Source: Carcharhinus longimanus (Eukaryota). Taken from it: DNA of 64,000 nucleotides. The stretch is taken from contig JASCQW010000099.1 of the NCBI GenBank assembly GCA_030264375.1, positions 56,885,631-56,949,630 of the forward strand, given 5' to 3'. Numbering within the stretch: position 1 is the first letter of the stretch; every line of letters begins with the position of its first letter. Of this stretch, positions 16,124-53,118 are shown in pieces. The translations under genes were made by a program, and so were the position numbers. A model generated the notes under the pieces. The model was not told the origin of the DNA. It saw only the letters and a list, made by a program, of their open reading frames with translations, and did no database searches.

Positions 16124-16345
16124 CTTCATCTGCAGATGCCTCACTGCTGTATCCATCATATTCTGCTGACAGAGGACTATATTTGAGTCTGGATTCCCAC
16201 ATATACCCTCTCTGATGGTGTCTGCTGTCTGATGCTGCACCAGAGGCGATCTGTGTTTTGGACAATGCCTCGTGGTATTTGCCAAGCACCTCATCTTCAC
16301 TGTCTGATGAGGAACCATGGTGGTCTCCATCACCATAACTGTTAT
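16124..16345 (-). CDS. SYT14: Synaptotagmin-14 internal exon (cytoplasmic linker before C2A)
   Basis: Translates NSYGDGDHHGSSSDSEDEVLGKYHEALSKTQIASGAASDSRHHQRGYMWESRLKYSPLSAEYDGYSSEASADE, matching recalled SYT14 (HGSSSESEDEALGKYHEALSRT...KYSPLSAEYDGYSSEASIDE). Acceptor gttgaccag|AT, donor GAAG|gtaaga; 222 nt, phase 1-1. Confidence 0.96.
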
Positions 16346-29200: not shown

Positions 29201-30560
29201 ACCTGCAATTTCTCTCCCTGAATCAAAACCCTTCTTCCACACCACTCTTTGAGCCACTAATTCAGTGCTCTAATCTGCTTGACCCTCCATCAATTTGGCC
29301 CACTTAATAATCCAGAGATTATTATCCTTGAGGTTCTGCACATTAATTTAAAACCCAGGTCCTTAAATTCCATCTGCAGAACCACATTCCTAGTCTTACC
29401 AGTAATATTGGTTCCTACATGGACCACCACAACAAGATCCACACCTCCCACACCAAGGATGGAATTTATTTGCCCTCCCAGGGGTGGGATGGCAAACAGG
29501 GGGATATCATCTTCTTGCCACGACTGGTATTTTACCAGCAGGAGGAGGTGTCCATGCCACCTGGCAGTCTTTAAGTGGGCTGAGAGAATGTTCCTCTATT
29601 TCAGGCACCCTATCCACAACAGAGACTCTGCATGCAAAGTAGTCTCCTGCCTTAACCCCATGTTTCCCCACCTCTGCCCTATCAAACCTAATCCTCCAAT
29701 CCCTCACTTCAGCCTGCCACACTGGCTCTTGCTTAACTCTGGACTTACCTAGATATCCAGCAACATGGTTCTTCTTCATTGGGAACTGCCTGTAATCCCA
29801 GCAATGGTGTCAAGAGGAAACAGGCTGTGAACAATTTTCCTTCTATTAGCAACCTCATTTAGCTAATGGCGAGCTCAATAAGGGTGGCAGGTGAGTGAAG
29901 GTTTGGCTGGATATGGGGAGAGATGGGGTAGGTGGAGGGTAGGTGAGGTGGAGTTTGGATGGGTAAGGGATGGGGGAACTACATTTTAAAATACTTCTAA
30001 AATACTTTTTGAAATGCACTTAAATTCTTTCTGAGGCCTCCCCAATAATTCTCAACATTGACTACATATTTATGGGCCGATGTATTTAAGAATGAATGGA
30101 ATGGAGATGTTTCATGTAACCAGCCCCTTCTGTAATTGGTTTACCTCCACACGTGCCTCAGGTTTGCTTAATTGGGTTCCAGACCCCTCCAGCCAATTAA
30201 GGCCCTGGCAACTGCATGATTGGAACATAGGAAGAAGGAGGCAAATTCAGCCCTTCAAGCCTACTTCACTATTCAATCAGATCATGGCTGATCGCTCCCT
30301 GGTCTCAAATCCGTCTCACACCTGTTCCCCACATCCCTTTTTTATTAGAAATATAGCTATCTCATCCTGCTTCCTGATAGACTGAAGACAGAGGTGTAAC
30401 ACAACTCTTGTTTGCTAACTCTTGATTCCTACCTTCAACTGGAAAATTCCGGACCTCGTTTCGTACGCAGACAGCACTATCTATTCCTCTGACAATGCTA
30501 TTTCTCACCACTATCAAATTTCTTTTTAGTCCCCAACTTGAATGGCTTATTGACAAACAA
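29200..30560 (-). mobile_element. CR1 ORF1 (esterase-like) remnants split by a MITE-like insert (~29450-30210) and a LINE tail (~30220-30370)
   Basis: 30460-30530 gives LIVVRNSIVRGIDSAVC (degenerate GDS motif); 29300-29430 gives VVVHVGTNITGKTRNVVLQMEFKDLGFKL..IIISGLL (SGNH block III-like). Confidence 0.7.
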
Positions 30561-31140
30561 CCTAATGCAGTTTGAGTCTGAATGTTGCAATTCACTTATT
30601 ATTACTACAGTTTTGATATAAAGTATTTTCATTGAAGAAGTATCTGATATGCCATAGTTTTTTATGTATATTGGGAGAATAAAACCTCAGGAAACTTTGA
30701 TCTAAAACTCAAGGTCTATAACTTACTGCAGATCTCTGCTGAGATCAATCAAATTAGGACAGACCATTTAGCATAGCTCAGAGCTGTTGACTTTACCGCT
30801 GAACAATTTCTACATAATGTTTAAGTCCTGTGCTTTTCACATAATGTTACTGATATTAATAATAATTTTAATTGCATACATAACATTTGAAATAGTTCTT
30901 GCAAATCATCATCAAAAGTAAGACAGCCAACTACATGGAAGAGAATATAATTTCAGTTTTCCTTGAAGAATAGGAAAAAGTGAAAAAGAATACTTCTTTA
31001 ATAGAAGGTCAGAAATAGATATGTTGCCACGATTCCAAAAGTTAGATTAGAAAGTTCTGGAGTCTTTGCATAGTGCTGATGACAGCAGAGTAGTTCAGGC
31101 TGAAGTTATAGAGCAGATCAAGTTGAAAACATGCTCTCAC

Positions 31141-32413
31141 CTTTGTCTGAAGTTTTCTTTTCTTTTTTCTCTTTCTTGATCTTATTGTTTTTTTCTGATA
31201 TTTTGGTGCAAGAGATGTCATTTTTTCCTTGTTTATTAAGATCTTTTTGTATTTGTAACTCATTTTTATGATCTGTGGAGTGTTTTTTAACATTTGAAAG
31301 ACTTTCCTCATGATTTTTAGATATTTTTTCTGATGTATCAGATTTATTATTGGCTAATTTCTTTGCACCTTGTGATAGCCAGCTAGATAGGGACTTTTTT
31401 CCTTCATTATCTTTTTTTTGCCTTTCATTGTCCGACACTACTGCAGTTTGGTTAGTTGCTTGGTTATCCCCATAATCAAACATTGATAACTTCCTTTTGC
31501 CCTTTTTATGCACTTGCTCTTTCTGTTTATTTATAGCTGCAGATTCATTGTTTTGCATTTCACTATTTGAGCCTTCAGTATTACGTTTATTAGACTTGGC
31601 TGAACTATTCCTTTTGTCTTGTAAAGGTAGATCATTCACTTCGTTGTTGATCTTCTTCAGACCTACATCAGATGACATACGTTTGAACATTTTAGTCTCT
31701 TCCTCTGTTGTTTGAGATTCTGATGCTTGTGCAGCACTGCTGCAATCTGAAATAGTATAATTATCTTTCTTAAATATTGATCCTTTGCAATCTTCATGAT
31801 TCTTTCTTTTCACCTTTAGACTTTCCTTGACTTGTGTGCTGTTTAACTTCTTGGATTCCGTGAAGTCACTTTTTGATGTTTTGTGTTGTTGAACTTCATG
31901 TAGCCCCACATTAACATCTGAAACATCTGTGTATTGTGGAGAGGAAATCTTTTCCACTGGTTTATAATTATAATCCCTTGCACTTGTCTCTGCAGAAACA
32001 TCACTTCTTAAACTATAAACTGAAGATTGGTTTTGTAACTGCTTTTGCCTTTTTTCTTCTTTATCATCTGGTACAATGTACCTTGCAGTATTGTGCAACT
32101 CTCCTGAATTAACACAAGTTGATGCCCAGTTTCTTATTTTTTCTCCTTCTTCAACAGACCATTTATTTATTTCAACTTCTGAGTCAATGTATGGAGATGC
32201 TGCACCTTCATCTGCACAAACTTCAGAAGATTCCTCTTCTGTACGTAAACCATTTAGCATTTGTGTTACCTGCTCTGTAACTGAATCAGCCACAGTATAC
32301 CCAGCCTTCTCAACTGCATCACTCAGGTCCTCTACAACACTGTTAAATTGCTCTACTAAAGAGGACACTGATGGCAGAGTCAGGCTTTGTTGAAAACTCT
32401 TGAAAAACGACAT
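31141..32413 (-). CDS. SYT14: Large alternative first coding exon of SYT14 (424 codons + 1 nt), predicted transmembrane-less N-terminus
   Basis: 431-codon ORF in AT-rich DNA on the SYT14 strand, between two SYT14 exons. ATG at 32411-32413 is preceded by an in-frame TAA. Donor AAAG|gtgaga at 31141/31140 is phase 1, compatible with the acceptor at 16345. Assignment to SYT14 is inferred from position and phase. Confidence 0.75.
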
Positions 32414-33425
32414 TTAATCAAGCAGTCTTGTTATCCCCAAGAAAGCAAAACACCATTCAGATGCATAGTGTAATTGGTTAATGTTGCCAAACTGGTCATC
32501 CTTTTCAGCTTACCTCTGTTAGTAAATAAATGCAAAAGGGTTTAAAATTCGTTATATGATGTCTAGTAAACATTTAAGTGCAAACTTTCAAAAATTAACC
32601 TAAAATCAGCATTGGCATATTTATTAATAAGCCAGTGGCCTATAATCCTTAACTCAGATTTAAGAACAAGATGTTTTTGTGGAAAGAAATAAAAAATATG
32701 AGCTCTATAGACTAATACAGAAGACTTGGATTTGCAACCAGCCAGCATGTTGATCTTGACGTATCACGAAGAGGCACTTTATCAACATCAGGCCCAATAT
32801 TCTCATCTTTCTATTATGGACAGGCCTGCCCAGTGTATAAATGGGAAATCAGGCACCTATCCAATGATTTTACATCCACTGATTCCCCAGTGGTAACCCA
32901 AAATTGGCAAATTAACACCCATTACTCCTCGCCCATTATATTTTGGAAACTTTTTGGACATTTGGAAATCTGTAGATGAGGTGTTGTCAGATATTTGTTT
33001 CTTATTTTACCATTAGAAACATGCAAAATGTAGGAATCCATGTAGCAGTAATATTGGGTATGATGGTTATAGAATTATAAAGAGTAAATTATTTACAGAA
33101 CAAAGAACCATTGAAATATGACTCACTATTGTGATGTAATTACAGTTATCTTGAATTGTATTCAAGAATTGAATAGAATAAAAATGGCCTCCAGATTATC
33201 AATTATTTTATTCAATAGAATGATAGAATTCAAAAGAATTTCTTTCAACTGGAATTTGAAGACAGACATTTTAAAATAATTAATAGGATATTTTGTTTCT
33301 AACAACTTCGAAAAGAAATTGAGTTTAAAAAAATTGATTTGCTCATACTGGCCTTGTTCTAGCACAGTAAACATTTTCCACTTTTAGAAAAATAAAAATG
33401 TTAGGACCTAGAATAAAGCACTTAC

Positions 33426-33590
33426 GATTATTGTCTTGTAAATCTTTGTTGGCCCTGTATTCTGCATCAAGGCACGGAAACTCTCCTATATTCTCAATGC
33501 ACAGTCTTTTGTTGATATATAGAAAGAGGAGGATCATGAGAATGACAATCACTCCAACAGCAGAGAGAAAGCCAACTGCTTCTGGAGATA
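33426..33590 (-). CDS. SYT14: Synaptotagmin-14 internal exon encoding the N-terminal transmembrane segment
   Basis: Translates (V)SPEAVGFLSAVGVIVILMILLFLYINKRLCIENIGEFPCLDAEYRANKDLQDNN, matching recalled vertebrate SYT14 (VSPEAVGFLSAVGVFIILMLLLFLYINKKFCFENVGGFPDL). Acceptor ttttcattctctttcag|TA, donor AATC|gtaagt; 165 nt, phase 1-1. Confidence 0.96.
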
Positions 33591-33824
33591 CTGAAAGAGA
33601 ATGAAAAATGTTAAAATAATATCTCCAAGTCACCCTATGGGCATTGCAAGCAAATGTATATTTATATAAATATGGATTGTCACCAAAAAGTGTCAACCTT
33701 GGCTCAGCGCTAACATTCTTATCATAATAAGAAAATTGTGGATTCAAGCTCTAGTCAAGAGAATTCACTACCGCAATCTTCAGTGCACTGACAACCAAGG
33801 AGGGTTATCTGTGGCCAGAACTGG

Positions 33825-34365
33825 AGAGTGGTGAGACCACATTTGGAATTTTGTGCGCTGTTCTGGTCACCTCACTATAAGAAGGATGTGGAAGCATTGG
33901 AGAGAGTGCAGAGGAGATTTACCAGGATGCTGCNNNNNNNNNNNNNNNNNNNNNNNNNNNNNNNNNNNNNNNNNNNNNNNNNNNNNNNNNNNNNNGGAGG
34001 GTAGGTCTTATGAGGAAAGGTTGAGGGAGCTGGGGCTTTTCTCTTTAGAGCAGAGGAGGATGAGAGGTGACTATTTCCTCAGGTGGATGTAGCTGTTATT
34101 AGGGGGCATAACTATAAGGTTCATGGTGGAAGACATAAGAGGGATGTCCGAGGTAGATTCTTTACTCAGAGAGTGGTTGGAGTGTGGAATGTACTGCCTG
34201 CTATGATAGTGGAGTTGGACACTTTAGGAACTTTCAAGCAGTTATTGGATAGGCACATGGAACACGCCAGAACGATAGTGAGTGGGATAGCTTAATCTTG
34301 GGTTCGGACATAGCTTGGCACAACATTGAGGGCCGAAGGGCCTGTACTGTTCTACGTTCTATGTG
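33825..34365 (+). mobile_element. CR1-type LINE 3' fragment spanning a gap
   Basis: VRPHLEFCALFWSPHYKKDVEALERVQRRFTRML; RGHNYKVHGGRHKRDVRGRFFTQRVVGVWNVLP; tail shared with 40955-41050. Confidence 0.93.
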
Positions 34366-46319: not shown

Positions 46320-47190
46320 GTAAGTTTACGAATGACACAAAGATTGGCCAGGTGGTTAACAGTGAGGCTAAAAGAAGTCGTCGAAGGAATGGTCAAATGG
46401 GCAGATAATTGGCAAATGGAATTTAACCCTGAAAAGTGTGAGGTGATACACTTTGGAAGGAGTAATCTGACAAGGATGTACTCAATGAATGGCAGGACAC
46501 TAGGAAATTCTGTGGAACAAAGGAACCTTGGCGAGGTCGTCCACAGATCTCTGAAGGCAGAACGTTATGTTAGTAAGGTGGCAAAAAAGGCATTAAGAAC
46601 CTTTATCAATCAAGGCATAGATTACAAAAGCAGGGAAGTCATGTTAGAGTTGCACATAACTTTGGTGAGGCCTCAGCTAGAGTATCGTGTGCAGTTCTGG
46701 TCGCCACATTATAGAAAGGAAATGATTGCACTGCATGGGGTGCAGAGGGGATTCACCAGGATGCTGCCTGGGATGGAACATTTAAGTTATGAAGAGAGGT
46801 TGGGTAAGCTTGGGTTGTTTTTGTTGGAGCAGAGAAGACTGATGGGTGACCTGATCAAAGTGTACAAGATTATGAGAGCCATGGGCAAGTAGATAGTGAG
46901 CAGCCAATCACCTTAGTTGAAGGGTCAGTCACAAGGGGACATAGATTCAAGGTGAGGGACAGGAGGTTTGGGGGGGATGTGAGGAAAATCTTTTTTTACC
47001 CAGAGGGTGGTGATGGTCTGTAATGCGCTGCCTGGCAAAGTGGTAGAGGGGGGTTCCCTGAGCACCTGACACTTCATAACATTCAGGGCTATGAGTCAAG
47101 TGCTGGCAAATGTGATTAGGTGGGACTTCAGGTGTTTCTAGTATATCAGTGTGGACTCAAAGGGCCTCTTCTGCGCTGTATGATTCTAAA
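46320..47190 (+). mobile_element. CR1-type LINE 3' portion with a 186-aa open segment
   Basis: WADNWQMEFNPEKCEVIHFG..LVRPQLEYRVQFWSPHYRK..GDLIKVYKIM; tail agggcctcttctgcgctgtatgattcta. Confidence 0.94.
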
Positions 47191-52557: not shown

Positions 52558-53118
52558 ACATAAGAACATAAGAAATGGGAGCAGGAATAAGCCATCTAGC
52601 CCTTTGAGCCTGCCCCGCCATTCAATAAGGTCATGACTGATCTGAAGTGGATCAGTTCCACTTTCCCGCTTTCTCCCCATAACCCTTAATTCCCNNNNNN
52701 NNNNNNNNNNNNNNNNNNNNNNNNNNNNNNNNNNNNNNNNNNNNNNNNNNNNNNNNNNNNNNNNNNNNNNNNNNNNNNNNNNNNNNNNNNNNNNAATCTA
52801 AAAACACCACATCCCCTCTGTCTACCGCACTAGTCATATCCTCATAGAAATCCAATAAATTCGTCAAACACAACTTCCCCTTAACGAATCCGTGCTGCAT
52901 CTGCTCAATCAAACCATTATTTTCTAGGTGCCTCACTATTTCTTCTTTGATGACGGACTCTAGCATTTTTTCAACTACAGACGTTAAACTAACCGGCCTA
53001 TAATTCCCTGCCTTTTATCTGCTACCTTTTTTAAACAACGGCGTAACATTAGCCGTTTTCCAATCTTCCGGCACTTCCCCAGAGTCCAGCGAGTTTTGAT
53101 AAGTAATTACTAAGGCAA
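52558..53118 (-). mobile_element. Young CR1-type LINE spanning an assembly gap
   Basis: EDWKTANVTPLFKKGSR..GNYRPVSLTSVV.KMLESVIKEEIVRHLE..QHGFVKGKLCLTNLLDFYED..VFLD; CpGs retained; family tail at 52558-52690. Confidence 0.94.

Follow-up and report, generated by a model that had tools for sequence, protein, structure and literature searches.

A predicted alternative 5' coding exon of SYT14 that would replace the transmembrane exon in Carcharhinus longimanus

Open reading frame and exon layout at the SYT14 locus

The window analysed is a stretch of 64,000 nucleotides from the SYT14 locus of Carcharhinus longimanus (assembly GCA_030264375.1, contig JASCQW010000099.1, positions 56,885,631 to 56,949,630 of the forward strand), and positions given without another reference are those of the window. 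The transmembrane (TM) exon of SYT14 lies on the minus strand at 33426..33590 (compare file S33 of PMC2823689), and the first shared SYT14 exon, encoding NSYG..SSSDSEDE, lies at 16124..16345 (-). The remaining SYT14 exons, including those of the C2 domains, were located downstream on the same contig and strand with 80-99% identity, and the exon preceding the TM exon sits about 6 kb past the window end. Between the TM exon and the first shared exon, an ATG-initiated open reading frame (ORF) of 431 codons runs on the minus strand from 32413 to 31118, with a TAA standing directly before its ATG and in frame. A preliminary description, made from the sequence alone, had reported this ORF, the TAA and a distance of about 1 kb from the TM exon; all three are correct, the AT-rich interval 32414..33425 between TM exon and ATG measuring 1012 nt. 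No N gaps were present inside the ORF or between the ORF and the TM exon.

Of the 16 ORFs in the 64-kb window that reach 100 aa or more, this one is the longest, the runner-up having 186 aa. Simulated 64-kb sequences of intron composition (n=60) gave a longest stop-free stretch of 157 codons on average and 204 at most, frames of 424 codons were expected by chance at 7e-8 per 64 kb, and in each of 500 base shuffles of the ORF no fewer than 16 stops arose. Protein and DNA searches both returned the ORF as a single copy in the genome, and no tandem repeats were found within 30500-34000. Comparison with Pfam gave no family at the cut-off, DUF3185 alone appearing below it (E 0.42). The earlier remark that the ORF shows no transposon motifs is borne out, its single copy and the lack of a mobile-element domain in Pfam speaking against a transposon or retrogene. 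Elsewhere in the window, further ORFs lie at 46332-46892 (-) and 52652-52966 (-), which may be fragments of a LINE reverse transcriptase.

Positions 31141..32413 (-) make up the coding portion of the alternative 5' exon predicted for SYT14. Its 5' splice donor, AAG|GTGAGA at 31135..31143 (-), would be cut after 31141 and leave 1273 coding nt, that is 424 codons plus 1 nt, in phase 1; beyond the donor, the open frame continues to its own stop at 31118. The TM exon, to which the ORF exon is an alternative, is in phase 1 at both ends and has the donor ATC|GTAAGT after 33426. The first shared exon (acceptor ..GACCAG|ATAAC) is in frame with either upstream exon, and the predicted join of the ORF exon to it reads ..KKTSDK-D-NSYGDGDHHGSSSDSEDE. 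Both the phase-1 donor and this join had been put forward previously and were confirmed, the catshark model XP_072366010.1 (Scyliorhinus torazame, P0002) having the identical join KKTSDK-DNSYGDGDHH. The ORF had been said, from the TAA before the ATG, to be unable to extend the TM exon; an in-frame continuation from the TM exon to the ORF was rejected for both candidate acceptors, each of which places the two out of frame.

The alternative transcript would begin either at its own promoter or from a non-coding upstream exon, and the interval 32414..33425 must contain the promoter or acceptor concerned. A scan of this interval revealed no CpG island, no TATA match and no strong acceptor near the ATG; candidate AG acceptors at 32516 and 32427 are weak, and five ATGs lie within 200 nt upstream of the ORF start. 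Four galliform models carry an F/L/S-rich extension ahead of the N-terminal motif, and because a translated pyrimidine tract would have this appearance, these models hint at an acceptor close to the ATG. Some 100 nt ahead of the ATG, at 32540-32505 (-), an AG comes immediately after a branch-point-like TACTAAC, and a donor-like GTAAGC begins two bases further on; this arrangement could represent the acceptor of the ORF exon, a micro-exon or chance.

Database models and conservation of the N-terminus

A search with residues 1-70 matched 75 of 113 candidates. These matches are shark, skate, frog, reptile and bird proteins, every one with a C2 domain; 69 of the 75 are named as synaptotagmin-14 and the remainder as 'hypothetical protein'. 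With the crocodile N-terminus as query, 226 of 252 candidates matched, 120 among those listed. A profile search against 50% representatives, for which the best 150 of 1575 were listed, added teleost models and a model of the black rhinoceros (Diceros bicornis, KAF5916746.1, P0165), all with the same N-terminus, which in the rhinoceros is joined to the shared exon. The rhinoceros was the single mammal with this N-terminus among the matches listed, human and mouse being absent from those listed. These orthologous models are automated NCBI/UniRef predictions ('synaptotagmin-14 isoform X'), and they share the motif by construction, having been chosen by N-terminal similarity. Multi-isoform NCBI models generally rest on RNA-seq.

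Shared SYT14 exons were reached in 146 of 146 database matches, and the TM motif occurred in none of them; likewise, the N-terminal motif stood at the start of 208 of 364 proteins and the TM motif was found in 0/208. TM and TM-less models coexist within one species in Malaclemys (P0320/P0332) and Paramormyrops (P0309/P0160). The models XP_072366010.1, XP_012817120.1 (Xenopus tropicalis), XP_019404974.1 (Crocodylus porosus) and KAF5916746.1 have the same N-terminus and the shared exons and are TM-less, and automated models of isoforms X1/X2 differ from the ORF exon in linker length and sequence alone. Every model keeps an open frame of some 230-400 residues here. One model (P0337) begins inside the alternative exon and does not include the helix described below. 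The proposal that the locus yields a TM-less SYT14 isoform was upheld to the extent that the predicted isoform and its exact junction match the database models of relatives. The exon had also been termed hidden, which proved mistaken, since automated models exist in sharks, skates, teleosts, frogs, reptiles, birds and one mammal; the accompanying guess that other vertebrates might have such predictions was right, as these are routine across jawed vertebrates.

Assigned by motif, the junctions in the 146 proteins lead into the SSSxSEDE exon in 92 cases and into the following exon in 54, so that two different downstream junctions are modelled for the alternative N-terminus. The acidic exon 16345-16124 is skipped in these 54 models, skates included, and shark SYT16 models likewise skip its homologue.

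The exon product divides into two parts. Residues 1-57 (32243..32413, -) open with M-x-F-F..QQ..LPS and continue as a Ser/Thr-rich, acidic amphipathic helix (15-57), and residues 58-424 (31141..32242, -) form a fast-evolving, charged, predicted disordered linker with a lysine-rich end. Identity to the catshark was 52/57 in the first part and 256/367 in the second, to two skates 46-47/57 and 153-154/367, and to five tetrapods 32-37/57 (56-65%) and 28-47/367 (8-13%). Conservation is limited to residues 1-57, and residues 58-424 are barely alignable outside cartilaginous fishes. The lysine-rich end (31215-31141, -) is kept in catshark and skates and is weaker in tetrapods; it may serve as a polybasic patch that binds lipid or as a signal for nuclear import. 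Within the variable linker of the teleost models P0164, P0168 and P0173, a second conserved motif, containing tryptophan (LEWxWxDGxWRV), was observed.

The alternative exon encodes no TM segment, its maximum 19-residue hydropathy being 0.56 versus 3.0 for the TM exon. Over residues 15-57 the hydrophobic moment is 0.47, a value reached in 0/5000 shuffles. The N-terminus M-x-F-F..LPS..D...EQ of the database models is present in the ORF and was compared across 24 orthologues chosen for diversity. At least 90% identity was found at 15 of 57 positions; F-F occupies positions 3-4 in 24/24 orthologues, and the polar residues Q8, Q9, P14, S15, S17, D43, E47 and Q48 are near-invariant (22-24/24). For the helix, the best angle is 97-99 degrees, the net charge -3 to -6 and the Ser/Thr content 9-15 per 43 residues; its hydrophobic face extends uninterrupted over about 43 residues and is maintained by interchangeable small residues. 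The AlphaFold model of the catshark protein, which is poor overall (mean pLDDT 48, with C2B poorly modelled too), places helices within the alternative exon at 2-8, 16-37 and 45-54 only (pLDDT 50-69) and leaves the linker unstructured. Residues 1-62 gave no usable match in the Atlas, and a PDB search returned six weak matches only (E 0.058-1.2), mostly to designed helical proteins.

Comparison with SYT16 and with other amphipathic helices

In the sections of Craxton 2010 (PMC2823689) drawn on here, vertebrate Syt16 is described with and without a TM segment, the TM-less form being produced from an alternative start further downstream; Ciona and sea urchin are likewise listed with variants of the TM-less kind. 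Human TM-less SYT14 variants are on record in the same source; they differ from the isoform considered here in starting inside the TM exon (MLLLFLYINK..) and not including the alternative exon. The sequences in part 1 of 3 of the Syt14 alignment in its file S33 all begin at TM starts or within the TM exon, and the first 400 characters per cell of its file S3 contained 0 matches to the N-terminal motif.

In the C. longimanus genome, SYT16 has a 191-codon alternative exon in phase 1 that joins the homologue of exon 16345-16124. SYT16 thus resembles SYT14 in pairing a TM exon with a large alternative N-terminal exon, each of which is phase 1 and connects to the homologous NSYG exon, and in having a conserved amphipathic start (first 40 residues; moment 0.37 in C. 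longimanus) followed by a variable linker; its alternative exon differs in being shorter (191 aa in C. longimanus) and acidic. The description of SYT16 as TM-less holds in that a downstream TM-less start exists, and fails in that a TM exon is present too (PMC2823689; C. longimanus genome). For the notion of an SYT16-like form of SYT14, similarly, the layout was found to agree and the alternative N-termini to have no significant homology. Hhalign gave these N-termini a probability of 1-4%, and profile HMM scores were 1.5-10.3 bits, mostly equalled by reversed sequences. With pattern-kept shuffles, the score was reached by 7-169 of 300 when eight SYT16 N-termini were tested and by 43-247 of 300 in the reverse direction; the lowest count among 18 tests, for P0167, was 7/300. 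Profile tests therefore gave no significant sequence homology, and the layout makes a common origin of the two alternative N-termini plausible, though unproven.

The SYT16-type TM exon of C. longimanus (L023:1501-1681; G000:C1:160976286, +) is intact and lies on a different scaffold from the remaining SYT16 (G000:C112:22.06-22.10 Mb, -). The region from 50 kb before this TM exon to 150 kb after it yielded no SYT14/16 exon, and the roughly 170 kb upstream of the alternative exon of SYT16 yielded no TM exon; either the TM exon has been mis-scaffolded, or there is a real break, which would leave SYT16 with the TM-less form only. An SYT16-like isoform X5 of the brittle star Amphiura filiformis (P0193) is TM-less, with a short hydrophobic/aromatic N-terminus and then an acidic linker, and its N-terminus had no significant match to the SYT14 or SYT16 vertebrate profile.

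Golgin N-termini of 20-50 residues with an aromatic tip capture vesicles, GMAP-210 adding an amphipathic helix, according to the sections of PMC5267433 used. Golgins of this type (GMAP-210 ALPS + M-S-W-L/F) share with SYT14 a short conserved N-terminus, aromatics at positions 3-4, an amphipathic helix and a long, poorly conserved spacer, and offer the nearest functional analogy, in the sense of working alike only. The conserved tryptophan of the golgin capture motif, however, is absent from the SYT14 N-terminus (M-x-F-F; F-F in all 24), the spacer is predicted to be disordered whereas that of golgins is a coiled coil, and the likeness does not extend to shown homology. An ALPS motif favours small liposomes over large ones, and its polar face is Ser/Thr-rich and nearly charge-free. 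That of the SYT14 helix is Ser/Thr-rich but bears a net charge of -3 to -6, for which reason the helix was not assigned to ALPS, despite the regularly spaced hydrophobic face that belongs to the definition as worded in PMC5267433. With the 11-residue helices of perilipin and synuclein (in the portion of PMC8064757 used) it shares small hydrophobics and an angle of 97-99 compared with 98.2 for the 3-11 helix; it differs in being acidic and in having about four turns of 11 only. The median best angle over 147 proteins was 99.0, and the SYT14 moment was 0.466 at 98.2 and 0.454 at 100, values by which the angle cannot separate a 3-11 helix from an ordinary one. By the features tested, the SYT14 N-terminus belongs neither to the golgin nor to the perilipin type.

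Interpretation and significance

The reading somewhat favoured here is that the ORF is an alternative 5' coding exon of SYT14 which replaces the TM exon and gives an anchor-free protein whose conserved N-terminal helix is likely to attach reversibly to a membrane or vesicle. Judged from the models of other species, it is very probable that the exon takes the place of the TM exon in C. longimanus and is spliced to the shared exons, and with them to the C2A-C2B domains. The anatomy suggests, at about even odds, that reversible membrane targeting falls to the helix and that the linker brings the C2 domains within reach of a second surface. In mechanistic terms, the alternative exon would take the place of the TM exon to yield anchor-free SYT14; the helix would fold on a neutral, loosely packed or curved membrane, assisted by the sequence-specific M-x-F-F..LPS tip; the flexible linker of 230-400 aa would give the C2 domains their reach to a second surface; and the protein would act as a Ca2+-independent tether or adaptor.

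The main rival to a membrane-binding helix accepts the same isoform and takes its N-terminus as a sequence-specific docking helix for a protein partner such as a small GTPase, an adaptor or a SNARE-related factor, the protein remaining soluble until recruited. The 15 of 57 positions with at least 90% identity include polar ones, near-invariant polar residues and acidic charge suit a protein partner as well as lipid, the net negative charge disfavours anionic lipid, and golgin N-termini work partly through sequence-specific contacts (PMC5267433, as far as used here). Docking of this kind is considered possible but distinctly less likely than membrane binding, given an uninterrupted hydrophobic face of some 43 residues whose small residues are interchangeable, as in lipid-binding helices, and the lack of any relative in Pfam, PDB or Atlas that would indicate a partner.

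Two further readings concern the exon itself. It could be coding yet be used chiefly as a retained or terminal segment following the TM exon, or yield the stand-alone ORF of 431 aa not connected to C2 domains, which seems improbable. The frame does pass the donor to its own stop, models P0157 and P0257 fuse the TM exon to part of the alternative exon, and four unspliced ORF calls in other vertebrates (among them P0263, from Logan assemblies) read K|GE across the same donor point. That shared point, however, fits a conserved donor, for the read-through tails vary in length and sequence while the K|G position is common to them; moreover, with either candidate acceptor the TM exon and the ORF are in different frames, and every one of the 146 database matches continues into shared SYT14 exons. 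A non-functional intronic ORF, transposon relic or retrogene joined to SYT14 by pipeline error is less probable still by a wide margin and is largely refuted: poor alignability of residues 58-424 beyond cartilaginous fishes would agree with it, but the single copy, the chance expectation of 7e-8, the lack of a Pfam family at cut-off, and the persistence, from sharks to a mammal, of the N-terminus and of a frame open over some 230-400 aa all speak against it.

The alternative coding exon is real and old and has already been annotated automatically; it is under-studied, with a layout known from the paralogue SYT16. The surprise is limited by its presence in automated annotation and by the publication of the same switch for SYT16. 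A literature search, which most subscription papers lay outside, found no paper on the isoform or the helix. SYT14 has been linked to recessive ataxia, and it is expressed in hair cells and electroreceptors. In mouse, exon 4 of Syt14-205 is subject to regulation in islet cells (PMC8527475) and might be the counterpart of the alternative exon. Its function is described as unknown in the passages of PMC13069148 and PMC8164606 consulted. The widest reading, which is speculative and rather doubtful, is that jawed vertebrates, mammals included, make an overlooked second major SYT14, a peripheral tether independent of Ca2+, whose unclassified, golgin-like amphipathic N-terminus would catch a specific class of vesicle or lipid droplet and whose long flexible linker would present the C2 domains; the switch between TM segment and helix would then predate the SYT14/SYT16 duplication, and this form might have a share in the role of SYT14 in ataxia, hair cells and endocrine cells. 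If much SYT14 is anchor-free and helix-targeted, studies of the TM form would miss a form with a different location, and variant screens could overlook a coding exon. The 57-residue motif offers a direct and cheap test.
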